Assembly: GCA_045635225.1 (NCBI GenBank)
Contig: JAZRBV010000060.1
Coordinates: 91,534-155,533 of the forward strand
DNA length: 64,000 bases
Reading direction: 5' to 3'
Origin: Eubacteriales bacterium
GTDB taxonomy: Bacteria; Bacillota; Clostridia; Oscillospirales; CAG-272
This document shows, in pieces, positions 38,528 through 62,229 of the stretch. The notes under the pieces were generated by a model. That model was not told the DNA's origin. It searched no databases and saw only the letters and a program-made list of their open reading frames with translations. A program made the position numbers and the translations under genes. The first letter of the stretch is position 1. The number at the start of each line of letters is the position of its first letter.

Positions 38528-39749
38528 AGTTCTTCTCCCCCTCGAAAATGTCGTTTATAATTGTTTTTGCATCACCGAAGCGATAATCTAATCTTTTTCC
38601 TCCGAACCAAGAGGTAGAATCAAATTCGCCTGGGTGCTTGGTCTTCGCGCGAGATGCACCTTTAAGATGAACTTCGCGTTTAATGATAGTATCTTTCAAG
38701 GAATCGATATCAGATGCCTTCATGTGTTTTTGGCAATCCAACAAAAAATGATGCAAAAGTGGGTTAACAATATCAAGTCTGTGGTAAATAGCATCGATAT
38801 CTATTTCCGCGATATCATTTAACACGGGTTCTAGCTTGCGCCACTCTGCGTTGGCTTCTTCATTCTCTCCATTAGATACTATGATGTTATACACTACTCT
38901 AAGTGCATAAACAAATTCAGAAAAAGAGACTGCATGATAATAATCGGTTTGAATCTCTTCTGGGAACATTGATATAAAAGTATTGTTAAGCTCCTCAAAA
39001 CTTTCAACGTTAACAATATCATCCATGTGCTCTTTCATTATGTGAGCAAACATCGTTCCTTTGCAGTTATCAACAATCTGCTTTTTGAGAAAATCAGCTT
39101 CTTCTACTGTCAATTCGATGGTAAGCTTGTCCATCCAATCCGATGTATAAGTTGGTAAATTCCACATCTTCTTGTATCGATCCTGCCCAGCATCGATATC
39201 ATCACGCTCGTTTTCTTCCGAATTGTCATTTCTGTTTCCAAGATTCTTGAGTGTTCCCTTTTGGTTGTTACTAGCACTAACAAAACGAATATACTCGGAC
39301 AAAGACAAGTTTCCACCTACGAATATCCCTAAGCGCCTAATACCTGCCCAGTAGATATCAGAAGGTGCGCGTTTTACCCACGATCCAGTAACCAATGCAC
39401 GTCTGCCAATAATACCATCAGACTTCGGGTTATCATGAAAGAGTTTTTTTCCACAACTTTCTTCTACTGCTGACAACGCTTTGAACATACGATTGGGATT
39501 AGTTTCGCCGCTTCTCTCTAAGTCTTTTAATGCATAAGGAACACAGAAAAAGTATTTTGCTTTAGTCTGGATCGTAGAGGTGCCAGGAAAGAAAAGGTTA
39601 GCGTATCCGTCTCGAATGGGAGCTATTCCAAGCTCGTCCAAAGTACCTGCTTCCGAGAGCAAGTCCAATACATTCAAAACTTTACTTCTTTCACTCTTTG
39701 AAAAGTCAATCCAACCTATTTGCATTCTCGACACCTCTAATTCAATCAA
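38508..39749 (-). CDS. DUF6361-like protein
   Basis: WIDFSKSERSKVLNVLDLLSEAGTLDELGIAPIRDGYANLFFPGTSTIQTKAKYFFCVPY matches my memory of DUF6361. Probable start at the MQIGW ATG (39725). Confidence 0.5.
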   Translation of the reverse strand: MIELEVSRMQIGWIDFSKSERSKVLNVLDLLSEAGTLDELGIAPIRDGYANLFFPGTSTIQTKAKYFFCVPYALKDLERSGETNPNRMFKALSAVEESCGKKLFHDNPKSDGIIGRRALVTGSWVKRAPSDIYWAGIRRLGIFVGGNLSLSEYIRFVSASNNQKGTLKNLGNRNDNSEENERDDIDAGQDRYKKMWNLPTYTSDWMDKLTIELTVEEADFLKKQIVDNCKGTMFAHIMKEHMDDIVNVESFEELNNTFISMFPEEIQTDYYHAVSFSEFVYALRVVYNIIVSNGENEEANAEWRKLEPVLNDIAEIDIDAIYHRLDIVNPLLHHFLLDCQKHMKASDIDSLKDTIIKREVHLKGASRAKTKHPGEFDSTSWFGGKRLDYRFGDAKTIINDIFEGEKNCAESEQ

Positions 39750-42664
39750 TAGTACTGCTCAATATATCCGTAAGCTTTATCGAACAATTCCTTATCTTTA
39801 ATCTTATATTTTACCATTACAATGCTTCGAAGAGCTTTCTTTACTTCTCTACGACCTGCGGTTGTATCTTGCCATCCATCGAAACGAACAAGTCTTACAA
39901 TATCATCGATATCTGTTACAATTCGCTCAACGATGACAGGAGTATGCGAATTCTTAACAGAGTGGAACAACTCAGTTAGAGCTGCTTTACCCTTATCCAC
40001 CTCTTCCATTGGAACAACTTCTTTTTCCGCTTGAGCTGCATCATGAGCTAGTTCGAGCAAATGTTTAAGGAACTCAATACTCGTTACTAATCCTTGCGCA
40101 TGTTTTTCTCGCAACTCTTCAAGTCTTTTTCCAAGCTCGATGAATCGTGGATCATCATTATGGCCAAGAATTCTGGCAACTAAATCTATTTCAACTTTCC
40201 TAGCTTTTTTCTTCGCATCGGTGTTGCCTTCGATGAATTCCTCAATCAAATCAGCATCGAGCGCTAAGATTTCCTCTTCGGGTGTTTCTTTTACATCCTC
40301 GACAGAAATATTCTCATGCACCAACTCAAGAGTTTTTGCTCCTAAAGACGCCCATATTAATCCACCGCGACCATCGACAGGCTTAATGGATTCATAAACT
40401 TTTGATAACCACTTGTAATCATAGCGGAAAGGAGCAAGACATCCATCGGGAGACAATGCATTCCAAACTCTGTTAAGAACTCTATAATCTGCACCAAAAG
40501 CGTCTTTTTCTTTATCCGTAGGAAGACAATCTTGAGCTGCCATAAGTCCTTCCCAACCATCAACTGTTCTGTCTACACCTGGGAAATGACCAAGGCACTT
40601 AGCTACCAATGAAGGCAATTCATTCTTTACTTGCTCAATATTGGTAATAACGGTTTGCACACTCTTCTCATCGAAGTCGAGCGCATTAGCAACATCATCG
40701 AAAATACCAATATAATCTACTATTAAACCACTTGACTTGTCTTGACCATATACGCGGTTAGTACGACAAATAGCTTGTAAAAGCGTATGATCCTTCATGG
40801 GTTTATCAAGATACATCGCCTGTAAAATGGGAGCATCAAATCCAGTAAGCAACTTAGAAGTAACGATTACTATCTTCAAAGGATGACGCGGATCTCTGAA
40901 GCAATCCAAAAGTTTCGCTTCTTCGTCACGATCTCGTCTCCACTGCTTATAACGATCTTCTTTGTCGTTGTTTGTATCCATAACTATGGTAGTTGCATAC
41001 TCACCCAAGAGCTTATCGAGTTCTTGCTTATATAATACACAACATTCGCGGTCATAGCACACAACTTGTCCTTTGAATCCATTAGGATCGATTTTGGTTA
41101 AGAAGTGGTTTGCAATATGCTCACATACCTTGCGGATACGCTCGGGAGATTTCATGATTGCTTCCATACGAACTCTACGAGCCAAATCAGATTTCTCTTC
41201 ACGTGTGAGACCTGCGTTGCGTGTTAACTCGTCAAACGCCTCGTTAATAACATCTTGATTTACATGAAGATCGACGGGTACAGGCTCAAAAATCAAAGGA
41301 AGAGTTGCACCGTCACGGATAGAATCAGCGAAGGAATAACGGCTCATATAACCGGAAGTATCTTCGGTTGCACCGAATGTAAAGAACGTATTCTTATCCA
41401 GCTTGTTGATAGGTGTTCCTGTCAATCCGAAGAAGAACGCATTAGGAAGCGCTTGTCTCATCTTATCTCCAAGGTTTCCTTCTTGAGTTCTGTGTGCCTC
41501 GTCAACCATGAGAATGATGTTATCACGAGGATTAAGCATTCCATCAACTTCACCGAACTTGAATATAGTGGTGATTAGAATTTTACGCATATCTCCCTTA
41601 AAGAAGGAAATAAGCTCTTCTTTCGATTTTGCACTCGCAAGGCCTGGTATATCAGACGCATTAAATGTTGCAGTAATCTGAGTTTCAAGGTCTATTCTAT
41701 CGTCAACGATGACAACAGTAGGATTCTTCAATTCTGGTGTCATTCGGAGCTTCTGAGCTGCAAAAACCATCAGCAATGATTTTCCACTTCCTTGGAAGTG
41801 CCAAATCAAACCTTTTTTAGGCTTTCCAGCCTTAACTCGTTCAACAATCATATTTGCGCCTTCATACTGCTGATAGCGACAAATAATCTTATATTTTCTG
41901 TATTTTTTATCCGTAGCAAACATGGTGAAGAACTGGAAAATATCCATAATTATTTCCGGTTTCATCATTGCTTTAAGGCTTCTCTGCACATCAGCAAGTG
42001 TTCCCTCGGATTTGTTTTCGGGAGTATGCCATGGGCCCCATACAGAAATGGGGGCGTTTATAGAGCCGTAACGGAACATCTTTCCTTCGGATGCGAAGTT
42101 AAATATATTCGTTACGAACATTTGAGGGATACTCTTCTCATATGCGTGAATATCGCCAGCACCATCTACCCATGAAATTGCGTCTCTAACAGGAGTTTTC
42201 AACTCACCAATAGCAATCGGGAAACCATTGATAAGCATAACGATATCAAGTCGTTTTCCACCTTCTGCTTTTGGGAATACCCATTGATTAGTTACCACAT
42301 ATTCATTCAAAGCGAGATCTTCTTTCGTTCTTGTACCGAAGAAACGAATAGGTGTCATTCTTCCATCCTTGCCGAACGGGAATGAGTTCTTTTCGAAAAT
42401 GAGCTGCTTAAAAGCCTCGTTTTGTGTAACGAGGTTATGTGGCTGTACAGACAAAATAAGAGAACGTAATTTATAAATAACTTCATCTGCTCTGCTCGGA
42501 TCTTCTGCTATTTCCGGGTTCAAACGAATAAGTGCCGATTTTACCATTGGTTCTACCAGAACGTCCGAATACAATCTAGGTAGCTGTTCGGCAGGTATGT
42601 ATTTCCAACCGTTTTTCTCAATGGTTTCATACACCATTTGTTCTAAATCTGCTTCACTAAACAT
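39746..42664 (-). CDS. hsdR: Type I restriction enzyme R subunit
   Basis: Walker A QGSGKSLLMVF, DEAH MVDEAHRTQ, LTGTPI, typical HsdR N-terminal nuclease region and C-terminal helical tail. Confidence 0.9.
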   Translation of the reverse strand: MFSEADLEQMVYETIEKNGWKYIPAEQLPRLYSDVLVEPMVKSALIRLNPEIAEDPSRADEVIYKLRSLILSVQPHNLVTQNEAFKQLIFEKNSFPFGKDGRMTPIRFFGTRTKEDLALNEYVVTNQWVFPKAEGGKRLDIVMLINGFPIAIGELKTPVRDAISWVDGAGDIHAYEKSIPQMFVTNIFNFASEGKMFRYGSINAPISVWGPWHTPENKSEGTLADVQRSLKAMMKPEIIMDIFQFFTMFATDKKYRKYKIICRYQQYEGANMIVERVKAGKPKKGLIWHFQGSGKSLLMVFAAQKLRMTPELKNPTVVIVDDRIDLETQITATFNASDIPGLASAKSKEELISFFKGDMRKILITTIFKFGEVDGMLNPRDNIILMVDEAHRTQEGNLGDKMRQALPNAFFFGLTGTPINKLDKNTFFTFGATEDTSGYMSRYSFADSIRDGATLPLIFEPVPVDLHVNQDVINEAFDELTRNAGLTREEKSDLARRVRMEAIMKSPERIRKVCEHIANHFLTKIDPNGFKGQVVCYDRECCVLYKQELDKLLGEYATTIVMDTNNDKEDRYKQWRRDRDEEAKLLDCFRDPRHPLKIVIVTSKLLTGFDAPILQAMYLDKPMKDHTLLQAICRTNRVYGQDKSSGLIVDYIGIFDDVANALDFDEKSVQTVITNIEQVKNELPSLVAKCLGHFPGVDRTVDGWEGLMAAQDCLPTDKEKDAFGADYRVLNRVWNALSPDGCLAPFRYDYKWLSKVYESIKPVDGRGGLIWASLGAKTLELVHENISVEDVKETPEEEILALDADLIEEFIEGNTDAKKKARKVEIDLVARILGHNDDPRFIELGKRLEELREKHAQGLVTSIEFLKHLLELAHDAAQAEKEVVPMEEVDKGKAALTELFHSVKNSHTPVIVERIVTDIDDIVRLVRFDGWQDTTAGRREVKKALRSIVMVKYKIKDKELFDKAYGYIEQYY

Positions 42665-43185
42665 GTGTAGCCTCCTGTTATGTGTTGTATACGGTGCATA
42701 GCACCAAATAATTTTGATTTATCGCTCTGCTCGACAAATGCGATAAACTGTTTTTGAATGGCAACATCTGGTATGGAAATAGAGTATTCTTTCCTTATAA
42801 CAGATGGGTGTGCCTTATGCAAATAGTCATAAACCTTTTTATCCCATTCGTTCATTAAAGCATGATATAGGTATCTTGTTAATATTCCAGTATCATTCAC
42901 CTTCAACCATCCACAAACATTGGTTACTGAGTATTTGTGCGGCGCACGATAGAAAAATTTGCCTCCACCATCTATGCTCCACGTGATTTTTTCATCGTCG
43001 AACATATATTGACTATATCTTCCTATTTCTCCGTTATTCGTAGCAGAACTGGAGTAGACAGGGTAATCGCCTGGGTTATCCATCATTTCTGTTTTGCTGA
43101 TGACTTGTCCTCTACCAAGGGTTATGCGTCCGCTATCCTCTAAATCTCCGAGCAAAAATTCTTCATGTTCGGCCATTGAAATCAT
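42643..43185 (-). CDS. hsdS: Half-size hsdS cassette (one TRD plus distal conserved region)
   Basis: Ends with FIAFVEQSDKSKLF. The in-frame sequence just upstream of its ATG reads KSQFIEM (central conserved repeat), so it resembles the second half of an hsdS. Confidence 0.6.
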   Translation of the reverse strand: MISMAEHEEFLLGDLEDSGRITLGRGQVISKTEMMDNPGDYPVYSSSATNNGEIGRYSQYMFDDEKITWSIDGGGKFFYRAPHKYSVTNVCGWLKVNDTGILTRYLYHALMNEWDKKVYDYLHKAHPSVIRKEYSISIPDVAIQKQFIAFVEQSDKSKLFGAMHRIQHITGGYTCLVKQI

Positions 43186-44213
43186 CTCGATAAATTGCGA
43201 TTTGAAACGACAAATTTTGATTTATCGCTCAGTTCTACAAACGCTGCAAATCGTCTCTGCGATTCTAATTCTGGTATTGGTATCATAATTTGCGCTAAAT
43301 CTTTAGCATAGACATGTGGCTGTCCTGATCCACGCTGCATAGCAAATATTTCGTCTTGCATGACCTTCAGCCTGCAATATAGAAAAATGCTATCTACTTC
43401 CGTGTTTTTGGGAAAAACTGTATTACAATCGGAAGCAAATATGGGAATATCCCAATAATTTACATATCCTGCATTTGCACCAGAAGCACTAATCGTGATA
43501 GCTCCAGCTGGTCTATTACTCTGATTATGATAACAACTGGGTTCGATTCCTGCAGCTACGACAGGTACATCTCCTTCAATTACATTATCTCTTGTGATTG
43601 TAGTACCTTTTTCGATAATCGCACATTCTCCGAGTTTTAACTGTTTTCTTTCACCCGAGAACATCTCGATAAATTGCGATTTTACCAACTCATCCGTGCG
43701 AGAAAGCAAAGCTTTATATGCGTTTTTGGCTTCGATGGCAGCCCAAATCAACGGTGTGATGCGACGCTGTTCTTCTATTGTTGGAATAGTAAATTCCAAA
43801 TCTTTAAGATCTTTCCAGTTAACCGTTGGAGACAACGATCCAACTGATATACGAATCGCCTCGTTTAAGAAGTAATCCGAACTGATAAATAACGGAAAAT
43901 ACTCTTTTGTTATTACATTTTCCCGTGGACGCAACACCATGCCATGAGCAGAAAAAATACCATCGAAAGGAGCTATGCCCACCTTCTTTTGATATGCTCT
44001 TCTTTTACCAAACAACACATCTCCCTTTTTCATGACAAGTTTTTCGCCAATAGGTGCAACATCCGATCCCCAACGAGATACGGTCAACGTTCCTGTATCA
44101 AGATGCTCTAGGCCAATATATGTTTCTTTATCCGCTTCTACCGGTTTCTTCTTTTCGGTGCTGTTAATAGCAATTTCAGTAAATCTAAATTTAGGCATAA
44201 ACCGCACCTCCAA
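43182..44213 (-). CDS. hsdS: Type I specificity subunit copy 2 (two TRDs)
   Basis: TRD - ELVKSQFIEMF - TRD - FAAFVELSDKSKF. Confidence 0.75.
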   Translation of the reverse strand: MEVRFMPKFRFTEIAINSTEKKKPVEADKETYIGLEHLDTGTLTVSRWGSDVAPIGEKLVMKKGDVLFGKRRAYQKKVGIAPFDGIFSAHGMVLRPRENVITKEYFPLFISSDYFLNEAIRISVGSLSPTVNWKDLKDLEFTIPTIEEQRRITPLIWAAIEAKNAYKALLSRTDELVKSQFIEMFSGERKQLKLGECAIIEKGTTITRDNVIEGDVPVVAAGIEPSCYHNQSNRPAGAITISASGANAGYVNYWDIPIFASDCNTVFPKNTEVDSIFLYCRLKVMQDEIFAMQRGSGQPHVYAKDLAQIMIPIPELESQRRFAAFVELSDKSKFVVSNRNLSR

Positions 44214-44246: not shown

Positions 44247-45245
44247 TTATCCGATATATCGGTGATGAGATAGTTTAACGTTGTTCTGGTTGACCATTGC
44301 ATATTGAAGTGTTGTATCGACACTTTGATGCCCCAGAAGCTGTTGCACTTGCTCAATGGGCATTCCTTTATCAATTGCCATGGTTGCTAATGTCCTGCGG
44401 AATTTGTGCGGATGCACTTTGGTTAACTCTAATTTTTTGCCTAATTCTCGCAGCCTTATCTCTACGCCACTAATTAAGAGTCTATTAAACGGATTTTGTA
44501 GTGAAACAAATAATGCTTCATTATCATCACTACGACCACGCAAATAATTCTGTAGATGTATTTTTGTTCTTGCATCAAAATACACACGTCTTTGCTTATT
44601 GCCTTTACCTAATACGATACACTCACGATTTTCAAAATCAACATCACTACGGTTGAGTTTTACTAGTTCCCCAACACGAATACCCGTAGATGCCAACATA
44701 TCTATAATTGCAAGGTCTCTTATTCCCTCAGAATGATCGCGCATCAACTCCAGAGCCTCGTCCGAGTATGTTTCCTTAACGGTTTTACAAGTTTTCACCT
44801 TATGTATTCGTCTCACCGGACTTTTTACAATGTAATCTTCATCCTCTAGCCAGGCAAAAAAGCTAGATAGTATACGTCGAATGTTATCTATTGTGACTTT
44901 GCTGGCATTGCTACGCTTTTGATATTCGTCTAGATAAACGCGCAAATCATCCGTTGTAACGAATTTTACCTCTTTTCCTATAGCCGTAAGGACATTTCGT
45001 ATAGTAGAGTCATAATAACGTATCGTTTTTTCCGAGCATCCTTCAACACGCTTAGCTGCTAGAAAAATTTTCAAATAGCTCTGTGTATCATTTTCACAAC
45101 TCTCTGTTGTTTCTTCAAGCATACATTGTACAAGCGTGTTGTGAAGGATCTCTTTTTGTACGTCATCAAGATGCATAAACATCTTTTTTTCAATTTTTTC
45201 AATAATTTGTCGTGTCATGTTGGTTTTTCTCCTTTTTACCAACAT
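44247..45245 (-). CDS. Tyrosine recombinase embedded in the Type I R-M locus
   Basis: ASTGIRVGEL (R), GKGNKQRRV (K), HPHKFRRTLAT (HxxR), LLGHQSVDTTLQYAM (H...Y). Confidence 0.85.
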   Translation of the reverse strand: MLVKRRKTNMTRQIIEKIEKKMFMHLDDVQKEILHNTLVQCMLEETTESCENDTQSYLKIFLAAKRVEGCSEKTIRYYDSTIRNVLTAIGKEVKFVTTDDLRVYLDEYQKRSNASKVTIDNIRRILSSFFAWLEDEDYIVKSPVRRIHKVKTCKTVKETYSDEALELMRDHSEGIRDLAIIDMLASTGIRVGELVKLNRSDVDFENRECIVLGKGNKQRRVYFDARTKIHLQNYLRGRSDDNEALFVSLQNPFNRLLISGVEIRLRELGKKLELTKVHPHKFRRTLATMAIDKGMPIEQVQQLLGHQSVDTTLQYAMVNQNNVKLSHHRYIG

Positions 45246-45260
45246 CCTACGCCATGATTT

Positions 45261-46364
45261 TTATTCGTTTTCTTGTTGAATCAAGGATTTAATGAGCTTA
45301 TCGATCCGAGAAATCGCTTCAAGTAGTTCAAATTTTGATTTATCGCTCTGCTTGACAAACTCCGAAAATCTTTTTCGTGTTCTTGAATCTGGCATCGGAA
45401 TAGTGAGTTTTCTCAATATTGAGAGATTTATATTGTTTTGAGCAGCACCTCTACCTATTTTGAGAATCGTTTCCTTCAGCTGCGTTAATGCAATATATGT
45501 ATACTCGATATCAACATCGCATTTCGGCTCTAATCCTGCAATAGCTTGGTTGGTTGTTGCATCTATATTTAGTATGCTAACTTCGCCAAGTGTAGCAAAT
45601 ATTGACAGTAAAAATGTCCCTTTTCTATATAGCTTTGTTGATGAATTTGATACGCCTAACGCTGTTATTTTTTCTTCTGTTACATCCAGGTACATGGATT
45701 TCATGTCGGAAATCTTCACCCACGGGATAGTTCCATGATCCCAATACTCACTCTTGCTACGAGTGGGTGTACCTCCAGAGGAAATATCGAAAATTTCGCC
45801 CAGTTCAACTTTAGGTATAGATTCGTCGTTTATTATCTGCTCGATAAATTGCGATTTCACTAGTTCATCGGTAGCAACAAGTTGCTTTTTATACGCATCT
45901 TTTGCACAATTTGCTGCTTTTAAAAGCTCAACTAGCGCTTCTTGCTTATTCAATTCGGGCAGTTCAAATTCATAATCTTTCAAACTCTCCCACTTTACAC
46001 GCGGTGAAAGCGAACCTGCTGAATTACCAACTGCGTAATCGAATAACATATCATTTTGAATGATGAATGGCAACAGTTCTGGATTAATCTTTTCTGGAAT
46101 TGCTTCTATAACTGTGATATCTCCCGAACATATACCATCAAAAGGAGCTTGAGCTGCTTTTTTGAGATATGCTCTGCGACGGCCAAAAAGCATATGACCT
46201 TTTTTGAATCCCTTAGTAAATGTGTTTTCTGTATCAACATCCCAATGCGAAAGTGTAATTTCGCCTGGAGTTAAATGTTCCAAACCAACAACAGGGAGTC
46301 CGTCACTCTTTTTCACTGTTGCTTTGTATTCGCGGGCAACATCACCGAGTTTAACTCTTGCCAT
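45261..46364 (-). CDS. hsdS: Type I specificity subunit copy 1 (adjacent to hsdM, presumably expressed)
   Basis: TRD - ELVKSQFIEQI - TRD - FSEFVKQSDKSKFE. Abuts the hsdM stop. Confidence 0.8.
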   Translation of the reverse strand: MARVKLGDVAREYKATVKKSDGLPVVGLEHLTPGEITLSHWDVDTENTFTKGFKKGHMLFGRRRAYLKKAAQAPFDGICSGDITVIEAIPEKINPELLPFIIQNDMLFDYAVGNSAGSLSPRVKWESLKDYEFELPELNKQEALVELLKAANCAKDAYKKQLVATDELVKSQFIEQIINDESIPKVELGEIFDISSGGTPTRSKSEYWDHGTIPWVKISDMKSMYLDVTEEKITALGVSNSSTKLYRKGTFLLSIFATLGEVSILNIDATTNQAIAGLEPKCDVDIEYTYIALTQLKETILKIGRGAAQNNINLSILRKLTIPMPDSRTRKRFSEFVKQSDKSKFELLEAISRIDKLIKSLIQQENE

Positions 46365-47849
46365 TTATTCATCCTCCTGTGTTAGCATTGAAATCAACGA
46401 GTCAGTATGCTCTCTAAGAGTCTCGCTCTGAGAAATCCAGTCATCTACACATTCTTCAACCGAAAGAACCGGATCAACAATAACTCCGTCTCGAACATAG
46501 AGTGCTATATTCAGAGAGAAATCGGTTGCTTCAATTTCATCATAGCTTACTACTCTTGCGTAATTTTCCTCATCTACATAATTTTTATATGCAGACGCAA
46601 TATGCGCTATATGTGCTTCCTCTAGATAACTCTGTGCGTTTTTACGCGTTACCTCTTTAACTGCATTTATAAATAAAATCTTTCCGCAACGTTTTGGTTC
46701 TTTTCTTGTACGACAAATAACAATACAAGCTTCCATCGGTGCATTAAAGAACAAGTTGGGGCCGAGTCCTATGACGCATTCCACCATATCACTTTGTATT
46801 AGTTTCTTACGCATCTCTTTCTCTTCATTACGGAACAGAATTCCATGAGGGAAAAGTATTGCGCATCTACCTGAGTTAGGTTTCAAACTCGCCAAAATAT
46901 GTTGGAAGAAAGCATAATCTGCTCTACCTTGAGGAGGAGTCCCTAAGAAATTTCGTCCATATTTATCCGACTCAAACGCTGCTCTATCCCATTGTTTAAT
47001 CGAATAAGGAGGATTTGCCAACACCAAATCGAATTTTTGGAGTTCTCCCTCTTCAATGAAAGCTGGAGTTCTTAAGGTATCATCGTTGACGATGTGGAAG
47101 TCCTTAACACCGTGAAGGAACAAATTCATTCGTCCAATAGCAGATGTCAGCTGATTTATTTCTTGTCCATAAACCTTTACATTACGCCATTCTTTATTAT
47201 TAGCTTTCAAATATGCAATGCAAGATATAAGCATTCCCGCGCTACCGCACGTAGGGTCGTAGATTGACTCACCTGGCTGAGGCTGCAACATTTCGGTCAT
47301 AAGGTGTACGACAGTTCTGTTGGTATAGAATTCTTGCGCTGTATGACCACTATCGTCAGCGAACTTTTTGATCAAATACTCATATCCTTGTCCAAGTTCA
47401 TCTTCCGGGCAATTTGCTATGGATAATACCTTCGTACTAAAATGCTCAATTAAATTTTTGAGAAGCGCGTCCGGCAAACGATTTTTGTTTGTCCACGCAC
47501 CATCACCGAATACACCATGTAATTGCTCAAGGTTGGCTGATTCTATTGCATGGAACGCGTTTACGATTGCTATTCCTACGTTTTCTGGTACTACGCGTAC
47601 ATCATTCCAATGATGCCCCTTTGGAACAACGAATGTATGTAGTTCTTCCTCGTCAAATAAATCAACATCGTCACCATATTTTTCTACAGCGGTTGCCGTT
47701 TCTTCATCATAAACATCGCAAATTCGCTTAAAGAAGAGCAATGGGAAAATATACTGCTTGTACGCACCTGCATCAATGTTACTGCGTAAAAGCACTGCAG
47801 AATTCCACAAGTACGACTTTAATTCCTCTATAGTTATACGATTACTCAT
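46365..47849 (-). CDS. hsdM: Type I N6-adenine methyltransferase subunit
   Basis: HsdM N-terminal YIFPLLFFKRICDVYDEE, AdoMet site DPTCGSAGML, catalytic LANPPYS. Confidence 0.9.
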   Translation of the reverse strand: MSNRITIEELKSYLWNSAVLLRSNIDAGAYKQYIFPLLFFKRICDVYDEETATAVEKYGDDVDLFDEEELHTFVVPKGHHWNDVRVVPENVGIAIVNAFHAIESANLEQLHGVFGDGAWTNKNRLPDALLKNLIEHFSTKVLSIANCPEDELGQGYEYLIKKFADDSGHTAQEFYTNRTVVHLMTEMLQPQPGESIYDPTCGSAGMLISCIAYLKANNKEWRNVKVYGQEINQLTSAIGRMNLFLHGVKDFHIVNDDTLRTPAFIEEGELQKFDLVLANPPYSIKQWDRAAFESDKYGRNFLGTPPQGRADYAFFQHILASLKPNSGRCAILFPHGILFRNEEKEMRKKLIQSDMVECVIGLGPNLFFNAPMEACIVICRTRKEPKRCGKILFINAVKEVTRKNAQSYLEEAHIAHIASAYKNYVDEENYARVVSYDEIEATDFSLNIALYVRDGVIVDPVLSVEECVDDWISQSETLREHTDSLISMLTQEDE

Positions 47850-50262
47850 TGAGCAAGCCCTCCTTTTTTAATAATTCCTTCAAGTGTTCTTCGGCTGCTC
47901 TTACCTCTTGTACAGCATCAAAATATTTTTGTCTCACAACAGCAGGATCTACTGATTCTTGTTGTGTTTTTTCGATATAAGTATTTACTGAAAGAGTATA
48001 GTCCTTTGCTGCAATTTCCTCAATAGTAACTACCTTTGCCAAATCTACAACATCTTCATAATTACAATAAAGATGATATACATCAGCTACATTATCAGCT
48101 GTCATAATGTTTTGAGCACGCTGTGCTGTGTAAAGCGTAGATCCGTCTATCAAGAGCACTTTACCTTTGTGTGAGGCAGGTTTATTGTTATTCAAGCAAA
48201 GAGCACAAGCTGAAACACCAGCTCCATAGAACAATCCACCAACAAAAGTAATTACTGCCTCCAATTTATCGGATTCAATAAGCTTCTGTCTAATTTCGCC
48301 TTCCTTGCCTCCATGGAACAAAACTCCTTGTGGAAGAATAACGGTACATCTACCATTGTGTCGATCCATAGATTTTACCATGTGCTGTAGCCATGCAAAA
48401 TCTGCATTAGAATCACTGGGTGTTCCCCACATGTTTCTTCCATATACATCAGAACTAAAAGCGTCTGCACCCCAATTCTTTAACGAGAACGGAGGATTCG
48501 CAATTACACAGTCAAATGTTTGCAACTCGCCTCGATATAAATAGTTAGGTGCACGCAGTGTGTCTCCCTGCGTTACCTTGAAGTCTTGTGCTCCGTGAAG
48601 GAATAGATTCATTCTGGCAATAGCAGATGTTGCAAGGTTTTTCTCTTGACCATATATTCTGCCATAAGTAGCTCTATCATCGTTCATATAACGAATCGCT
48701 TCTATAAGCATACCACCAGTACCACACGCAGGGTCATATACCGTTTCACCAGGCTTGGGTGCAAGTATCTTTACTAGAAGAGAAACTACAGATCTAGGTG
48801 TATAGAATTCACCCGCATTTTTCTTTGACAAATCTGCAAATTTCTTTATTAAGAACTCATAAGCATCGCCCATTACATCCGCTGAATAATTCATGTTGCC
48901 GACCTTAAGGCTATGCATATGCTCAACCAAGCGTTTCAGTCTATCGTCAGAGAGCTTTGTTTTATCCGTCCAGTTTGCATCATCAAAACTGCTGAAAAGA
49001 CCCGAAAGCGTATCGGGATTTGCTCGTTCAATACCGGTCATTGCATTTACAATCGCAACTCCGACATTTTCGCTTTTCTCATGCACGTCACTCCAATGAC
49101 ATCCATCTGGAATCATGAACTTGTGGATTTCGTCTTCATCGAAGTCAACCACATCATCGCCATACTGCTCTTGTGCAAGCAAAGTTTCTTCATCATATAT
49201 ATCAGAAATTCGCTTAAAGAATAAGATCGGGATGACGTATGTTTTAAATTCATCCTGATTTATTGGGCCACGAAGAATGTTACACGCTTCAAATAGGTGT
49301 AAAAACAACTTTTGGCTTGTTGTTTCTTCAGATTCAACCGTTGTTTCTGCTAAATCGGTGTCCGCTATTTTTACTGCTGATTCTATCATTTCAGATCGTT
49401 CTCCGGTCGTTACTTTGTTTTTTGTTCTTGTGGTGGTGGCAGTGGTTCTAACACCACGAACCTTCTTCTCCATCAAGGGTGCATACACATTTTCAAAATC
49501 AACAAGTATTTTCATCAATCTTTCATCTAGGAAAGTAAGTGCATGCTTTCTTATTTCGGTAGGTATTCCATAGTATGCCTCTGCTATTCCACCAGTAATA
49601 GCTGCAATGGTATCACTATCACCACCAATTGAAATAGCGTTTCTAATGGCATCTTCAAAATCTGTGGATTCCAGAAAAGCCATAATTGCTTGAGGCACTG
49701 TTTCCTGGCATGTTTCGTTAAATTGATATGTATCTCTAATGCCATCAAGAGTGAAATTCATCTTATAATAATGTGCATCAATGTAATCTCTTATCTCAAG
49801 AATACTGTACCCTTGCCTAGCCAAGAAAATCGCAACAGCTGTTGCTTCTGCTCCTTTGATGCCCTCCGGATGACCGTGTGTTACCTTTGTTACTTCATAT
49901 GACAACTGCTTCGCTTCTTCTAAAGTATTAGCCGCGAATCCACACGCACTAACCCTCATTGCCGCGCCATTTCCATAGCTATTATACGGCTTGGGTTCGT
50001 CTGAATAAATCCACTCGTAGAACATACCACCAAAACCGGAATTAGGATACGGTCTTCCTATTTCTTGCATATTTTTGATAGCATTTTCTGCAAGTTTTGA
50101 ATAATCTCCATTGCAATCTAATATCGCCTTAGCAATCGCCAATGACATTATTGAGTCATCAGTGAAAAAGCACTTGTATGTCAAAAAATCAAACGACTTG
50201 CTTCTATTGTTGTGCCACTCAAAACGAGAGCCAACAATATCCCCAATAATTGCTCCTAACAT
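47842..50262 (-). CDS. Fusion: N-terminal ADP-ribosylglycohydrolase (ARH/DraG family) + C-terminal HsdM-type N6-adenine methyltransferase
   Basis: ARH: MLGAIIGDIVGSRFEWHN, NSYGNGAAMRVSA, THGHPEGIKGA, IGGDSDTIAAITGGIAEAYYG. A Thr/Glu-rich linker follows. HsdM part: YVIPILFFKRISDIYDEE, DPACGTGGML, IANPPFS. Confidence 0.8.
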   Translation of the reverse strand: MLGAIIGDIVGSRFEWHNNRSKSFDFLTYKCFFTDDSIMSLAIAKAILDCNGDYSKLAENAIKNMQEIGRPYPNSGFGGMFYEWIYSDEPKPYNSYGNGAAMRVSACGFAANTLEEAKQLSYEVTKVTHGHPEGIKGAEATAVAIFLARQGYSILEIRDYIDAHYYKMNFTLDGIRDTYQFNETCQETVPQAIMAFLESTDFEDAIRNAISIGGDSDTIAAITGGIAEAYYGIPTEIRKHALTFLDERLMKILVDFENVYAPLMEKKVRGVRTTATTTRTKNKVTTGERSEMIESAVKIADTDLAETTVESEETTSQKLFLHLFEACNILRGPINQDEFKTYVIPILFFKRISDIYDEETLLAQEQYGDDVVDFDEDEIHKFMIPDGCHWSDVHEKSENVGVAIVNAMTGIERANPDTLSGLFSSFDDANWTDKTKLSDDRLKRLVEHMHSLKVGNMNYSADVMGDAYEFLIKKFADLSKKNAGEFYTPRSVVSLLVKILAPKPGETVYDPACGTGGMLIEAIRYMNDDRATYGRIYGQEKNLATSAIARMNLFLHGAQDFKVTQGDTLRAPNYLYRGELQTFDCVIANPPFSLKNWGADAFSSDVYGRNMWGTPSDSNADFAWLQHMVKSMDRHNGRCTVILPQGVLFHGGKEGEIRQKLIESDKLEAVITFVGGLFYGAGVSACALCLNNNKPASHKGKVLLIDGSTLYTAQRAQNIMTADNVADVYHLYCNYEDVVDLAKVVTIEEIAAKDYTLSVNTYIEKTQQESVDPAVVRQKYFDAVQEVRAAEEHLKELLKKEGLLNE

Positions 50263-50274
50263 CGTTTCTTCTCC

Positions 50275-50481
50275 TTATTCCTCTGGTATTACTTCGACTA
50301 TGTCACCGATATCGACATTAAGCGCAGAACATATCTTGACAAGAGATTCCGTGTTAACGTTCTCATCCTTGCCAAGCTTAGCCATCGTTGCACGACTAAT
50401 ACCAGATAACTCGAGCAAGTCTTTCTTCTTCATTTTCCTGTCAATGAGTAATTTCCATAACTTGTTATAACAAACCGCCAT
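50275..50481 (-). CDS. XRE-family HTH protein (possible controller of the R-M/defence operon)
   Basis: KKKDLLELSGISRATMAKLGKDENVNTESLVKICSALNVDIGDIVE is a Cro/C1 HTH. It lies 13 nt upstream of the ARH-HsdM gene. Confidence 0.7.
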   Translation of the reverse strand: MAVCYNKLWKLLIDRKMKKKDLLELSGISRATMAKLGKDENVNTESLVKICSALNVDIGDIVEVIPEE

Positions 50482-51433: not shown

Positions 51434-52429
51434 TTACTTATCCTCCGTATAATTACTAGTCAATGAAATAATGTAGTCTTTCAGCTGTTCCTGGATGTTT
51501 TGAGGTGATACTAATCTCAACTTGTTTCCAAAAGAACAACACCATCCAAAGAATATCGGACTAACCTGTACATCTGCTGTGAATCTAACATATTCGTTAT
51601 CAAGCTTTCTAATTTTAGTCTTTTCACCAAACAAATCAAATACGACATCAATTAGCGTCTCATGTATCTCTATCGAAACTTTTTCTGTTTCTCCAGAGAA
51701 CATACCGAATAAAGAACGCTTGTGCTTTCCTATGTTAAGCACTGACTTATCTTCTGGAAGCACAACATCATCTTCAAGAATTTGCACCCCTTCCATTCGG
51801 TCAATTCGATAATGCGATATCTTATCAAATCTACTATCATACGAAAGAAGGTAATAATGCCCTTCTGAAAAGATAGTTGCACACGGGTTGGCCTTATAAT
51901 GATGATGGTCACGCCTATACACACGATTATGGTTGCAGTCGTAATCAAAATAGTAGAAGATTATCTGCTTCTTCTTTCGAATCGCCATGACTATTTCGTT
52001 TACCGAGTAATATATGGATTCGTTTGTGTTCTTTGTCGTATTAAATGCTACGATGTTGCTTTTTAGAACTTCACCTTTTCTACTGCCAGCAAGTGATGCT
52101 ATCTTCTTCACTAATTCGGCAGTTTTATCTTCCGGTATAAAAGAAGCTGCTTGTACAGCATCAAGCATTATATGAAGCTCTGGCATATCGAATCGTCTAT
52201 CAACAACCCAATACTCGTTATTCTTTGAACGATTGGCTTTAATTTCGTATCCCCATTCATTTAACACGTCTATGTACTTATAGAGAGTTCTTCTGTCGCA
52301 GGGGATGTTCATATCGTCCAACTTTTTCAGCAAAACAGTCGACTGCATTGGGTTATCTTCGTCTGTCTCCTGGTTGAGTATTTCCCATATTTTCAGTAAA
52401 ACAATCTTAGATGCTACGCGATTATCCAT
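51434..52429 (-). CDS. HTH-WYL transcriptional regulator (BrxR/CapW-like)
   Basis: N-terminal wHTH (STVLLKKLDDMNIPCDRRTLYKYIDVLNEWGYEI). WYL-type core YRRDHHHYKANPCATIFSEGHYYLLSYDSRFDKISHYRIDRM. Confidence 0.7.
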   Translation of the reverse strand: MDNRVASKIVLLKIWEILNQETDEDNPMQSTVLLKKLDDMNIPCDRRTLYKYIDVLNEWGYEIKANRSKNNEYWVVDRRFDMPELHIMLDAVQAASFIPEDKTAELVKKIASLAGSRKGEVLKSNIVAFNTTKNTNESIYYSVNEIVMAIRKKKQIIFYYFDYDCNHNRVYRRDHHHYKANPCATIFSEGHYYLLSYDSRFDKISHYRIDRMEGVQILEDDVVLPEDKSVLNIGKHKRSLFGMFSGETEKVSIEIHETLIDVVFDLFGEKTKIRKLDNEYVRFTADVQVSPIFFGWCCSFGNKLRLVSPQNIQEQLKDYIISLTSNYTEDK

Positions 52430-54035: not shown

Positions 54036-55196
54036 TTATTTAGATGTTTTAGAAAACAATCCGTTCAATGATTCAGAAGCCTCTACAACTTGTCTGTTTT
54101 TGAGATGCGTGTAAATATCCAAGGTTGTTTTTATTTTGCTGTGTCGCATCCACTTTTGCATTTCCATCGGTCTCCATTTATTTGCATATAGAATTGAAGC
54201 TGTGGCGTGTCGCAAATCGTGGAATCTGATATGCTCATATCCTTTCTTCTTTAAGACTCTCTGAAAGGTTCTTGTAAGCGAATCAGGTCTATAAAGACTT
54301 CCATCGGACTTCGTAAATACGTAATCGCTTTCGTAGTAATCTTTGCCGAATAGTTCTCTATATTCTTCTTGCTTTGCTTTAACTTCAAGCAGAAGTTCTC
54401 TTGCATCATCAATCAAAGGGAGCGTGGTAGAACTTGCATTGGTTTTGGTATTATCTACCGCCATAATGCTTGTATATTTTACAATGGTATGATCAACAAC
54501 TATAGTATTTTTCTTGAAATCTATCGCTGACCATTTTAATCCAAGGATTTCTGAGCGTCTTAATCCATACATCAATGTCAGCTTGACTAACGGCTGTAGG
54601 TCATTGTTATCAAACACCTCAATTATTTTGTTAGCTTCATCAAGGTCGATCTCTTTAGCCACAGAATTACTTGACGTTCTTTTAGGAATTGGAACTATAT
54701 CAGCAACATTTTGATTGATATAATCCCTAAGTAAAGCATCATTTAGAACTGCTCTGAAAATAGCGGCGTGCTTCTTGATTGTTTGAGAATCTAATCCGCC
54801 TCTACCATCCGCACGTCCTTTTGTGAACTTGAATTCATAGTAATCTATTAGATGCTGTTTCGTTAAGTCTTCAATGTCTAAGCCCATATTTTCAAAATAT
54901 GGTTTTATATGTGCATTAATACAAACCGAATATGCCTCATAGGTGCTTTGGCGTACTTTTCCATATTGTCTTTTCAGCCATCTGTAAACTTCATCTAAGA
55001 AAAGATGCTTATTGGGATTATATTCTAATCCAATATACCGCTTAATGATGTCGGGTATCATATCTTCAGCCTCTCTCTTATTTCCTTTTGCCTTCAATCC
55101 AGTACCCACCCACTTGGTTTTATGCTTTCCCTCTTCCGTTTTGTAGGAAAGCACTACATACAATTTGTTGTTTTTTTCTTGTACAGAACCTCTCAT
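54036..55196 (-). CDS. int: Tyrosine integrase of element B
   Basis: GLRRSEILGLKWSAIDF (R), HDLRHATASIL (HxxR), MRHSKIKTTLDIYTH (H...Y). N-terminal arm-binding-type domain. Confidence 0.9.
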   Translation of the reverse strand: MRGSVQEKNNKLYVVLSYKTEEGKHKTKWVGTGLKAKGNKREAEDMIPDIIKRYIGLEYNPNKHLFLDEVYRWLKRQYGKVRQSTYEAYSVCINAHIKPYFENMGLDIEDLTKQHLIDYYEFKFTKGRADGRGGLDSQTIKKHAAIFRAVLNDALLRDYINQNVADIVPIPKRTSSNSVAKEIDLDEANKIIEVFDNNDLQPLVKLTLMYGLRRSEILGLKWSAIDFKKNTIVVDHTIVKYTSIMAVDNTKTNASSTTLPLIDDARELLLEVKAKQEEYRELFGKDYYESDYVFTKSDGSLYRPDSLTRTFQRVLKKKGYEHIRFHDLRHATASILYANKWRPMEMQKWMRHSKIKTTLDIYTHLKNRQVVEASESLNGLFSKTSK

Positions 55197-55408
55197 ACCG
55201 CCATTGGCTCCTTTCTAAATAAATAATCAAATAAATACACTTTTGGAATTCTGATTTGGTTTCCGATTCGAATACTTCTGATTTCCTTGTTTCTTATCAA
55301 AGAATAACAAGTAGTTCTTGACACTTGCAAAATTGCACTTAACGCATCAACTGTTAGCACATCGGGATAATTGCTTAAAGCTTTGTTTTTGTGATACTGA
55401 TAATTCAT
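55193..55408 (-). CDS. xis: Excisionase-type HTH protein
   Basis: LTVDALSAILQVSRTTCYSLIRNKEIRSIRIGNQIRIPKVYLFDYL. Overlaps int by 4 nt. Confidence 0.7.
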   Translation of the reverse strand: MNYQYHKNKALSNYPDVLTVDALSAILQVSRTTCYSLIRNKEIRSIRIGNQIRIPKVYLFDYLFRKEPMAV

Positions 55409-55514
55409 ATTTGATTTACAGCCTTTCTACCCATTAGGGATTTTTATTTTATTTTCCATAGGTTTGCCGATGCATAACAAACAGAACAACGCCTGTTTGC
55501 TATGCATCATTGTT

Positions 55515-56039
55515 TTAGCGATTGTCGAGCAAGAAGCCGTAAGATGTATAAAGGCAACTGCTCCCAAGTCTTATGTCACGCCCATACGCTTCATAGCAAA
55601 AATAAGGGCGAATGCTTTCGGGTAAATCAATACTGCAGTATTCCTTTGCGTAGTAATAACCAAGTTCCTCATCATCGGTAACATCGGTGATTAAATCAAA
55701 CTCGTCCAACCTGTCCAAAAGCTCTAACACCTCTGACACGCTTCTGCAAGCCTCATATTCAAGCACCGCCCCCAGCTTGTCAGCCTCATCATCCGACAAG
55801 TCCTCAAGGCGTTGTGCCAGCTCATTTAATGCTTGCACGCTTGAATACTCGGAAATCACATCACCTATGCCAATGATTTCGTTTTCATAGTCGGTAATGA
55901 AGTATTCTTCGTAATACTCGTCGATACCGATTTCCTTAAGCACCTTGTCAAGCACATCTTCGCAGACAGGGAGCTTTACCCATTTTCCAACGAGATAACC
56001 CTCATTGTACCTACCCAAATTAGTAATAAAGATTTTCAT
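55515..56039 (-). CDS. ardA: ArdA anti-restriction protein
   Basis: MKIFITNLGRYNEGYLVGKWVKLPV...EYYEEYFITDYE N-terminal signature. Acidic throughout. Confidence 0.8.
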   Translation of the reverse strand: MKIFITNLGRYNEGYLVGKWVKLPVCEDVLDKVLKEIGIDEYYEEYFITDYENEIIGIGDVISEYSSVQALNELAQRLEDLSDDEADKLGAVLEYEACRSVSEVLELLDRLDEFDLITDVTDDEELGYYYAKEYCSIDLPESIRPYFCYEAYGRDIRLGSSCLYTSYGFLLDNR

Positions 56040-56407
56040 AGTTCTGTTATCCTTTCATTGTCTTGAGATTTTGCGAGACAAGCACTATAATGTAAGTACC
56101 GACATCGCAACTCTCGTGCTGTTCTTTGCCATTCGTATTGTTCTTGCCTTGCATAATGCACACCCTTTCTAACCACGCATATATATGCGTAATATTTATA
56201 ATATATTGTATAAATATCCACCTTCATTTAACACTTACATAAATATTGTAGTGCCGTTTTTTCACTATGAACAGAAAAAATGAAAATTTCCTTCATTAAG
56301 TTATAGTCGCTCATTTTTTACAACAGTAACTAACAGCTACGGCAAAAGGGATTGTATTGTTATTATAGTGCATATATATTCGGATGATAAGGAAAATGAA
56401 AAACTCA

Positions 56408-56445
56408 TAAAAAAACAGCCCTGCCTCCATTACGGAGGCAGGGTT
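56408..56445 (-). terminator. Terminator of the rep operon
   Basis: 10-bp GC-rich stem CCCTGCCTCC/GGAGGCAGGG followed on the minus strand by T7. Confidence 0.7.
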
Positions 56446-56624
56446 GCCCTTTGGAAAATAAAAAGAAAGGAAAAGAAAGGAATAAAAATTTGAAAGACTG
56501 ACATTTTTCTACACCTTACTCAAATTGCTTTCGCAACTTTATATTATTATATAAGGTAGATAATGCAATTATCAATTAAAAGTACGCTAAAACAAATATT
56601 TTATTCCATTGTAGTCCTTTCATT

Positions 56625-56921
56625 TCAACGCACGTATTTTAGCTTTTGCCAAGTCTTCTCCTTATTATAATCATATCCTATGTCAACCATCGCAATACCC
56701 TGTAGATTGCAATACACAGGATTGATCTTGTCTACATCGAGCTTACGCAAGAGCAGATAGGTTAAATAGTGTTCCGCTGACAAGTAAAACGATACGAGGC
56801 TTGGCGGATAATCGGGCTTGTACGATGGCACAAGGAATGTGGCAACATAGCCCTCAATGGTTTCTTTGGTGTCTTGGGAAACAAAGTCTTTTTTTCTTAT
56901 CTCTATTAAGTTAGCTTTCAT
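56625..56921 (-). CDS. Hypothetical protein downstream of rep
   Basis: ORF only. Confidence 0.4.
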   Translation of the reverse strand: MKANLIEIRKKDFVSQDTKETIEGYVATFLVPSYKPDYPPSLVSFYLSAEHYLTYLLLRKLDVDKINPVYCNLQGIAMVDIGYDYNKEKTWQKLKYVR

Positions 56922-56938
56922 TGGTATATACCTCTCTT

Positions 56939-58612: not shown

Positions 58613-58630
58613 ATAAAGTATTTACTTTAC

Positions 58631-58833
58631 CATCAACTACAGCGTGGTAAGCATACCTTACTATAGTGCAACTGCATTTTAATCAACAGACAACTATGTT
58701 CGAGGGCACAGTAAACCATAGCTTAGTTGCTTTATCATCAACTGTAGCGTAGAAAGCATACCTTACTATAGTGCAACTGTACTTTGACCAACAGACAACT
58801 ATGTTCGAGGGCATAGTAAACCATAGCTTAGTT
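58631..58833. repeat. Two tandem 98-bp direct repeats (105-bp period), iteron/origin-like
   Basis: Copy 1 is 58631-58728 and copy 2 is 58736-58833, with 9 mismatches by my count. A palindrome TGTCCGC-TTGC-GCGGACA follows at 58851-58868. Confidence 0.7.
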
Positions 58834-58877
58834 TGTGTTTATATGTTTATTGTCCGCTTGCGCGGACATATGGACAT

Positions 58878-58917
58878 ATAAAACACAAAGCCCAGTGAGG
58901 AATGATAATCACTGGGC
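58878..58917 (-). terminator. Terminator after the second recombinase gene
   Basis: Stem GCCCAGTGA/TCACTGGGC followed on the minus strand by TTTGTGTTTTAT. Confidence 0.55.
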
Positions 58918-59011
58918 ACGGACTTAGGAGAATATGAAAAACCTTAAAATATAAGTAGTTTTGTAGATATATAGGATATTTTGGAACATATAAAACATAT
59001 GAACATATCGT

Positions 59012-62011: not shown

Positions 62012-62229
62012 GAGATATTTCCTTTCCAAAAACAAAAAGTGCGTCCCATTGAGAGACGCACGAAAAACGTACCTCTCAATGTTGCTACACATCTACCCAT
62101 AACAAAGGGAGAGAGAATACATTTTTACCAAAATAGTATTCCCCCTTGTAAGGGTATATTAAGATGTGTAGCGAGTTTATTATATCATATTTTTTAGATT
62201 TTGTCAATGTAATACATAATATTAGAAAC

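Follow-up and report, generated by a model that had tools for sequence, protein, structure and literature searches.

In this study, we analysed a Type I restriction-modification (R-M) locus in a 64,000-nucleotide stretch of DNA from an Eubacteriales bacterium (assembly GCA_045635225.1, contig JAZRBV010000060.1, positions 91,534 to 155,533), which as a whole is called the window, and in particular a gene at 47842-50262 on its minus strand, the product of which joins an ADP-ribosylglycohydrolase (ARH) domain to M1, the first of two DNA methyltransferase subunits. Judging from its proteins and their order, the locus is a PacII-type non-canonical Type I R-M system, with one subunit for N6-methyladenine (m6A) and one for N4-methylcytosine (m4C). 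Two-M systems of this type are already known; the ARH addition on M1 appears undescribed. The best explanation, which we hold tentatively and put a little below an even chance, is that M1 of this PacII-type system carries the ARH as a tethered eraser, which would remove ADP-ribose (ADPr) put on the complex or on nearby DNA by the transferase of an invader.

The open reading frame (ORF) codes for 806 amino acids (aa) and contains no stop and no frameshift. Pfam profiles recognised ADP_ribosyl_GH at residues 1-233 (E 1.9e-37, with a score of 130 bits where the cut-off is 26.2, and a match that spans positions 3-281 of the 287 in the profile), HsdM_N at residues 322-448 (E 2.7e-21) and N6_Mtase at residues 460-769 (E 1.1e-94), and the motifs GGDSDT, DPACGTGG and NPPF were found at residues 213-218, 510-517 and 589-592, respectively. 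The parts of the fusion are the following.

47842..50262, minus strand: ARH-M1 fusion gene, 806 aa, an open frame with Pfam ADP_ribosyl_GH, HsdM_N and N6_Mtase.
49477..50262, minus strand: ARH domain, residues 1-262, a small ARH3-like ADP-ribosylglycohydrolase, complete.
49390..49476, minus strand: connector, residues 263-291 (29 aa), variable and of low model confidence.
49401-49404, minus strand: Shine-Dalgarno-like (SD-like) GGAG inside the connector, 11 nt before the Met292 codon.
49387..49389, minus strand: internal ATG, Met292, the native M1 start codon kept inside the fusion.
47845..49389, minus strand: M1 proper, residues 292-806, predicted m6A methyltransferase subunit, best Protein Data Bank (PDB) match 7vru_A.
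48712-48735, minus strand: M1 motif I, DPACGTGG.
48487-48498, minus strand: M1 motif IV, NPPF.

A search of 5.8 billion proteins yielded over 120 clusters in which these three domains recur at 71-98% identity along the full length, annotated as 'N-6 DNA methylase' at most; in the databases sampled, the ARH addition is unnamed. No less than 207 matching stretches were found in a one-genome-per-species collection, and the best 80 of these, representing 80 independent species, served for the comparison of loci, while 79 full-length relatives translated from the 80 loci served for the protein alignment. The relatives among these best 80 are 65-78% identical to the window protein, and 78 of the 79 are 780-830 aa long with the fusion in one frame. 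Carriers include Clostridia, Bacilli (Paenibacillus, Robertmurraya, Brevibacillus), Negativicutes, Acholeplasma, Akkermansia, Sphaerochaeta, Synergistaceae, Deferribacteraceae and one archaeon, the isolate Methanomicrobium mobile; the search with M1 described below added relatives in the Bacillus cereus group, Lysinibacillus and Dehalococcoides. Since 65-78% identity to the window protein is kept across such distant groups, the sequences indicate horizontal spread of the fusion, part of the taxonomic breadth resting on metagenome bins. A frameshift, a misassembly or a gene-calling error as the source of the fusion has a negligible probability: nothing was found in its favour, the frame is uninterrupted, the assemblies of 80 independent species and over 120 protein clusters show an identical architecture, and the junction is under purifying selection. 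The first-pass annotation, a reading of the window sequence alone, had described the ARH as joined in frame to a full HsdM; conservation in 80 species loci bears this out and rules out a sequencing frameshift or misjoin.

In the alignment of the 79 relatives, identity to the window copy was 74% in the ARH, 37% over residues 256-315, 73% in HsdM_N and 73% in the methyltransferase domain. A full-length AlphaFold2 (AF2) model gave low confidence to residues 261-280 (pLDDT 52-63) and 308-313 and a helix at residues 289-307, and its pTM of 0.55 leaves the relative placement of the domains undefined. Alignment and model together suggest that the connector is a flexible tether between ARH and M1. This linker had been called Thr/Glu-rich, which is true of the window copy, but across the 79 relatives it is rich in Lys, Glu, Ala and Ser instead. 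The stand-alone ARHs of the clade end with FENxYPxKxEK at about residue 265, and ARH-less M1 proteins of 515 aa begin with MMxSAxDxAD exactly at Met292 of the window protein (806-291 = 515), thus the fusion is made up of an entire ARH, a connector of about 29 residues and an entire M1. The column of Met292 holds Met in 71 of the 79 relatives; 52% of these have an SD-like motif before it, and other internal Mets have one in 9.6% of cases, an approximately five-fold difference in raw percentages that count related sequences alike and involve Gly-Gly/Glu-Arg codons. The motif looks like a relic of the ribosome-binding site of M1, and free M1 is possibly also made from the internal start at Met292.

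Among solved structures, the best sequence matches of the ARH domain were MJ1187 and ARH3 (E ~1e-13). Its AF2 model (pLDDT 97, pTM 0.94) has the all-helical ARH fold, and a Foldseek search placed ARH3 first (TMq 0.73-0.80), followed by MJ1187, DraG and the immunity protein of a Listeria ADP-ribosyltransferase (ART)-ARH pair, with E of 3e-11 to 1e-8 for the ARH3, MJ1187 and DraG matches. The key residues are D8, E15, T34-D35-D36-S37, G97-N98-G99, R103, H129/H131 and G213-G214-D215-S216-D217-T218. The catalytic Glu of ARH3 aligns with E15, and metal ligands (T34-D35-D36, D215/D217-T218) and catalytic residues are invariant in 78-79 of the 79 relatives; the domain is therefore complete with its GGDSDT motif, as had been noted from the window alone, and its catalytic residues are not degenerate on alignment. 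In pairs 88-98.5% identical, the ARH had a median dN/dS of 0.065, the connector one of 0.134 and M1 one of 0.038, and the ARH is under purifying selection. Sequence and model thus far agree with an ARH that is probably catalytically competent. With the ARH3/MJ1187 type (PF03747) it shares the fold, the acidic residues of the binuclear metal site (TDD[ST] and GGD[ST]DT) and the N-terminal glutamate of GDxxGxxxE, but it is shorter (~262 aa against ~350 aa for ARH3), only ~22% identical and fused to a DNA methyltransferase.

The subunit behind the fusion and its motif are as follows.

46365..47849, minus strand: M2, 494 aa, a full HsdM by Pfam and predicted m4C methyltransferase subunit, best PDB match 7vru_B.
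47004-47015, minus strand: M2 motif NPPY at residue 279.

The fusion gene is followed by a second HsdM and an HsdS in 80 of 80 loci, with HsdR downstream or directly upstream where the contig reaches, and the second HsdM of related loci is 64-85% identical to M2 of the window. Two-M Type I systems have been reported to form a heterotrimeric M1M2S methyltransferase (Morgan et al. 2016, PMC5100572), in which the upstream M1 (NPPF) makes m6A and the downstream M2 (NPPY), beside S, makes m4C; the identity between M1 and M2 is 45-55%, over 300 systems of this kind were listed by 2016, and PacII, DbaKI, BceNI and Mma5219I are characterised examples (PMC5100572). A bipartite recognition site with m4C in one strand and m6A in the other also belongs to this type. 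Structures of PacII_M1M2S are available as 7VRU/7VS4, with the identities of the chains given in PMC9613975. The M1 part of the window protein scored 461 bits on PacII M1 (7vru_A) and 375 bits on PacII M2 (7vru_B), and M2 of the window scored 539 bits on PacII M2 and 429 bits on PacII M1; other HsdM proteins in the PDB (EcoR124, 3lkd) came next with only ~200 bits. M1 and M2 of the window are 44% identical over 491 residues and resemble each other more than they do HsdM proteins of single-M systems. Residues 3-290 of HsdS align to PacII S (7vru_C, E 1e-37), and residues 1-177, the first target recognition domain (TRD1), are 64-79% identical in many loci against 27-48% over the full length. Because this conserved N-terminal half matches the published description of the cytosine-reading TRD1, TRD1 is predicted to read the cytosine half-site.

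The locus is thus alike to the PacII type in its two paralogous M genes, with NPPF in the upstream M1 and NPPY in the M2 adjoining S, in the ~44% identity of M1 and M2, the reciprocal best matches, the conserved TRD1 and the typical HsdR, and in its overlapping, translationally coupled genes. It differs in that M1 has an N-terminal addition of 291 residues (ARH and connector), PacII M1 having 499 aa and no ARH, and in that the window copy has extra hsdS genes and a tyrosine recombinase. A classical Type I system (families IA-IE, M2S1, a single hsdM for both half-sites) was rejected as the class of the locus, since 80 of 80 loci have two different M genes that are conserved together. The first-pass annotation was right about a second HsdM with NPPY following the fusion with an 8-nt overlap (47842-47849), but it took two M subunits to be unusual, and this layout is the defining feature of published PacII-type systems (PMC5100572, PMC9613975). 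It also took the downstream NPPY protein for a canonical stand-alone HsdM, which would instead be the m4C-forming M2 of an M1M2S complex, the ARH sitting on the predicted m6A-forming M1.

The ARH is not present in all close relatives of the system. A search with the ARH-less M1 of a viral contig (L112) returned proteins of 502-515 aa and of 805-806 aa mixed together, all 78-82% identical, with ~25 short against ~95 long ones. On the M1 tree the state of the ARH requires at least seven changes, four of them forced by well-supported branches; these counts lean partly on metagenomic gene calls, and some of the 515-aa entries may be gene calls cut too short, about five ARH-less lineages being backed by N-termini of their own or by inspected contexts. 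A verified pair without the ARH branches within ARH-bearing sequences, which indicates a loss of the ARH. The contexts of ARH-less M1 were inspected in loci L119-L122, and in L119/L120 a gap of 330 nt separates a WYL gene from M1, after which M2, S and R follow. Judged by these comparisons, the ARH is an optional accessory, dispensable for the core enzyme. In the ARH-less sister system L119 (5361-6624), a 285-aa gene without Pfam match and a NUDIX hydrolase gene lie between hsdS and hsdR, and these inserted genes may be another nucleotide- or ADP-ribose-related accessory. Some relatives have extra genes before M1, namely a degenerate N6_Mtase that is fused to (L001, 8273-9895) or preceded by (L121, 5033-6944) a Methylase_S-like TRD.

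The ARH family itself comprises 1,819 clusters at 50% identity (E < 1e-30), including stand-alone genes of ~262 aa that are 72-83% identical to the fused domain. Their contexts are ordinary chromosomal neighbourhoods, in one case a defence island with a DEAD/MZB helicase, NERD, PLD and SIR2-HerA, and in another the phage-like contig L123 described below. At least 546 ARH-family stretches were found in IMG/VR, most of those examined being ~262-aa stand-alone genes, and the domain matches the phage family phrog_6572 (E 6e-55). Other fusion partners of the family include SseB, DUF6508, HD_4, kinases, GNAT, RecA, patatin, HIRAN and TnsA-like domains, and N6_Mtase occurred in 2 of 98 multidomain representative clusters in a survey of domain architectures. 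Fused and stand-alone forms interleave on the ARH tree, with at least 16 changes, nine of them forced, part of the stand-alone set being gene calls on short contigs. At the level of sequence, tree and contexts together show the fused ARH to come from a horizontally mobile clade that is also found stand-alone in bacteria and in phage contigs. The R-M system, too, is often on mobile elements, as with the integrase/ArdA/Rep element in the window, the elements in L005/L006 that resemble integrative and conjugative elements (ICE-like), and 20 viral contigs.

This mobility bears on the possibility that the fusion is a matter of co-inheritance, that is, a mobile ARH gene and a downstream M1 gene became one ORF when a stop codon was lost, the only gain from the fusion is transfer and expression together, the ARH acts as stand-alone ARHs do, and free M1 may still come from Met292. 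The anatomy of the protein, a full-length ARH followed by ~29 aa and a full-length M1 from its native Met, would be expected from such an origin, as would the enrichment of SD-like motifs before Met292, the close stand-alone ARHs in ordinary or phage contexts, and the repeated gain and loss on both trees. We nonetheless consider it unlikely that co-inheritance is all there is to the fusion, since the fusion has been kept in frame and at near-constant length in at least 207 stretches across phyla, and fused forms outnumber ARH-less ones by ~95 to 25 among the closest M1 relatives. In addition, no split operon, with a separate ARH gene directly upstream of M1, was found among the loci examined. 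L093 appeared to hold such a split, but its whole contig is riddled with frameshifts, and other short proteins with an ARH only, considered as split intermediates, were contig-end fragments or true stand-alone genes elsewhere.

The phage contexts raise a further alternative, in which the ARH would degrade a soluble ADPr derivative, such as a glycocyclic ADPR signal, O-acetyl-ADPr or another NAD-derived messenger, and would serve a mobile element as anti-signalling counter-defence. ARH3-type enzymes cleave O-glycosidic ribose bonds, and the fold match to ARH3 agrees with a substrate of this kind, as does the abundance of the family in viral contigs. On a phage-like contig (L123, 6246-7804), a 77%-identical stand-alone ARH directly follows a homologue of Tad3, an inhibitor of Type I Thoeris. 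This adjacency was rejected as a general rule, as it occurs in one phage lineage only and the commonest upstream neighbour in phages is unrelated, with neither a Pfam match nor similarity to the Tad3 homologue. For a soluble substrate, moreover, fusion to a methylase subunit has no obvious advantage, and phyletic patterns have been taken to argue that ARG domains prefer macromolecular conjugates (Iyer et al., PMC9503650), so that on balance a small-molecule substrate seems to us quite improbable. The same L123 contig encodes thymidylate synthase, RNase H, ligase, GIY-YIG, an intein-containing UvrD and gyrase. In ~24 related phage contigs (viral loci L142-L207, e.g. L157, 3335-3961) the stand-alone ARH follows, at a distance of 41 nt, the gene of a conserved ~205-aa protein without Pfam match, in which a KYHGxxEGGLFDHS motif looks HD-like.

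If the ARH reverses a modification, the enzyme that makes the modification might be expected nearby, and none was found, as no ADP-ribosyltransferase is among the conserved module genes of the 80 loci. DarT (PF14487) is present in three of 50 carrier genomes, none of them with DarT placed at the module, and a profile search did not find it in the genome of the window, thus a resident DarT partner was rejected. Searches of this genome for the ART and ADPrib_exo_Tox families gave no match either, which is weak evidence, the controls for both searches being uninformative. A toxin-antitoxin pair of the DarTG type was likewise rejected, with no DarT adjoining and a hydrolase that has the ARH fold rather than that of a macrodomain or NADAR protein. 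These results also bear on self-regulation, in which an endogenous ADP-ribosylation switch would control restriction (restriction alleviation) and the ARH would reset it. The reversible switch of the DraT/DraG type is an established paradigm, and an ARH tethered to the complex would be well placed for such a role, but there is no transferase in the module, the genome searches for DarT, ART and ADPrib_exo_Tox (the last two with the uninformative controls) gave no match, and ARH-less sister systems exist, which makes this explanation highly improbable.

A DNA-directed version is a serious rival. The ARH would then strip ADP-ribose from DNA, as DarT-type base adducts or phosphate-linked ends, when the methyltransferase or translocase meets it. 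The characterised enzymes that take ADP-ribose off DNA bases are macrodomain and NADAR proteins, and no biochemical report of an ARH acting on base adducts was found in the literature searched; the stand-alone relatives have no DNA-binding partner, and the distribution of DarT, absent here and present in three of 50 carrier genomes, argues that the ARH is not a resident antitoxin. On the other hand, the fusion puts the hydrolase on a DNA-binding complex that is often encoded on mobile elements, DarTG modules have been found time and again inside Type I R-M operons (PMC8883491; PMC12255303), an ARH-like antitoxin, 'DarG3', of a DarT system has been reported (PMC13069673), and phages are reported to have orphan enzymes, antitoxin-like and ADPr-removing, against DarTG1 (PMC11825919). 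Overall, we regard erasure from DNA as unlikely yet worth weight. On a mobile element the ARH would in this version shield the DNA of the element from host DarT-like defences, or else it would clear ADP-ribose that hinders recognition, methylation or translocation.

Several known systems resemble the arrangement in part. DarTG within Type I operons and DarHTG with its ARH-like DarG3 (PMC12255303; PMC13069673) have in common with it a module that handles ADP-ribose and is tied to a Type I operon, and, in DarHTG, an ARH-like protein as eraser or antidote; they differ in that DarTG is a separate toxin-antitoxin pair between hsdS and hsdR, whereas here the hydrolase is fused to M1 and the module has no DarT. 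The ART-less ARG systems of Iyer, Burroughs, Anantharaman and Aravind 2022 (PMC9503650, section 3.8) share an ARG without cognate transferase in a conflict context and the proposed logic of erasing the modifications of an extrinsic ART. Nudix- or WYL-domain transcription factors belong to the neighbourhood of those systems, and the WYL genes near several loci here, which flank ARH-less forms as well, may correspond to them. There the ARG is paired with phosphatases, chaperones and ARPP domains, none of which are among the conserved genes of the module, and here with a Type I methyltransferase; R-M systems go unmentioned in PMC9503650. The ARH immunity proteins Tri1 of Serratia and that of the Listeria ART-ARH pair (PDB 8za7) have the ARH fold, 8za7 being among the fold matches, and protect because they undo the modification, not because they bind a single toxin, but the window has no cognate toxin gene, and the NCBIfam model of Tri1 gave 29 bits against a cut-off of 490.

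For the enzymatic activity, the substrate and the benefit of the ARH we infer the following scheme. The ARH would stand outside the chemistry of methylation and restriction, as an accessory to it; the transferase of an invader would put ADP-ribose on the R-M complex or on nearby DNA, and the tethered ARH would remove it, the likeliest targets being the R-M subunits and otherwise the scanned DNA, whereby restriction and modification would be kept running. For ARG domains that lack a cognate ART, a role against the ADP-ribosylation of host macromolecules by viruses has been predicted (PMC9503650, section 3.8), and the kinase of T7 is a phage enzyme that modifies host proteins and so disarms defences broadly (PMC13645617). 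We favour a tethered eraser because this published argument fits best and the T7 kinase offers a precedent. The abundance of the ARH clade in viral contigs, with one copy beside the Tad3 homologue and another in the defence island, also speaks for such an arms race, and the missing cognate transferase points the same way. Both roles had been suggested from the window alone: reversal of ADP-ribosylation imposed by a phage or toxin on the complex or DNA appears the most plausible class of explanation, and there is little to support a coupling of methylation to an ADP-ribose signal, given that the ARH is missing from closely related M1 proteins.

A number of points weigh against this explanation. 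ADP-ribosylation of any Type I R-M subunit is unreported in the literature searched, and ~22% identity to ARH3 does not fix the bond specificity of the domain. Stand-alone relatives, up to 83% identical, work without an R-M partner, so that the fusion may reflect co-inheritance, and from the interleaving of fused and stand-alone forms together with the loss of the ARH in the clade it follows that its selective advantage is conditional. The phage context of close relatives fits counter-defence, with erasure of ADP-ribosylation inflicted by the host, at least as well. Finally, the internal start at Met292 could supply ARH-free M1, which would weaken the importance of the tether.

An ARH on an R-M subunit was not found described in the full-text literature searched, and the string 'ADP-ribos' is absent from PMC5100572 and PMC9613975, so that the original remark that no role had been described for such a domain holds within that literature. 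An 'ADP-ribosylglycohydrolase' of SCCmec was considered and rejected, as this gene is unrelated and goes together with a permease and a ribokinase. In the PvCTn paper, one conjugative transposon is listed with both an ARH gene and a Type I system, which the paper neither links nor describes as fused.

Type I R-M systems belong to the bacterial defences that have been studied most closely, and the known means of anti-restriction are DNA mimicry, DNA modification and proteolysis. A conserved and selected ARH tethered to the methyltransferase core raises the possibility that ADP-ribosylation is used against restriction complexes or the DNA that they scan. In its broadest form, the proposal would be that ADP-ribosylation of Type I complexes or their DNA by phage or plasmid transferases is a widespread, unrecognised form of anti-restriction and ARH-M1 a built-in countermeasure of the host or the mobile element, which we regard as possible but doubtful. 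The fusion is common, with its at least 207 stretches including Paenibacillus, the Bacillus cereus group, gut Clostridia and one archaeon, and it offers a handle on an abundant, uncharacterised family of small ARHs with hundreds of copies in phage contigs. The question is testable, as ARH-less sister systems and Met292 mark a natural boundary and PacII-type systems function when cloned in E. coli.

The R-M genes form one co-directional row on the minus strand from 39.7 to 50.5 kb, and the remaining genes of the row, with the WYL gene beyond it, are listed here.

50275..50481, minus strand: HTH_26 protein, 68 aa, Pfam HTH_26 (E 5.6e-21), directly upstream of ARH-M1.
45261..46364, minus strand: HsdS, 367 aa, Pfam Methylase_S.
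44247..45245, minus strand: tyrosine recombinase between hsdS copies, Pfam Phage_integrase and SAM-like N-terminal domain.
43182..44213, minus strand: second full-length hsdS, 343 aa, Pfam Methylase_S in two stretches.
42643..43185, minus strand: half hsdS (one TRD), 180 aa, Pfam Methylase_S in one stretch.
39746..42664, minus strand: HsdR, 972 aa, Pfam HSDR_N, SWI2_SNF2 and T1R_D3-like, PADLOC REase_I (E 5.5e-122).
51434..52429, minus strand: WYL-domain regulator, Pfam WYL (E 2.4e-07).

PADLOC recognised the ordinary Type I components of the locus and gave no match for the ARH part. A classic shufflon with inverted repeats was considered for hsdS and rejected, as the repeats are direct and 67-78% identical and the hsdS copies, the fragment and the recombinase are co-directional; the same co-directional layout of hsdS and recombinase was observed in the related loci L005 and L121, and a tyrosine recombinase is present in about half of the related loci. 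Homologues of the HTH_26 protein lie upstream of the fusion in ~14 of the 80 related loci and also in L005/L006/L093, and by analogy with RptR (PMC12255303) or C proteins the 68-aa protein is probably a transcriptional controller of the operon. The WYL gene lies 1.2 kb upstream of the fusion, and WYL genes are also found beside the related systems L005/L006, L081 and L119/L120, thus adjoining ARH-less as well as ARH-bearing systems; a link between the WYL regulator and the R-M system is possible.

The same 3.26-Mb genome holds a second complete system with the order ARH-M1, M2, S, S, recombinase, half S and R on contig C16 (L094, 1196-11913, minus strand). Its ARH-M1 is 73% identical overall to that of the window, the ARH part being visibly more conserved than the remainder, and a stand-alone small ARH in this genome is 50% identical. 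An integrative mobile element adjoins the R-M locus at 54036-59959 of the window, with genes for a tyrosine integrase, an Xis-like HTH protein, the ArdA antirestriction protein, a replication protein with Rep_OBD and helicase, and a second, SAM-like integrase fragment. Further along, at 60779-62092 on the minus strand, the window encodes a predicted membrane-anchored protein of 437 aa with many repeated Cys-x2-Cys ...GH motifs.

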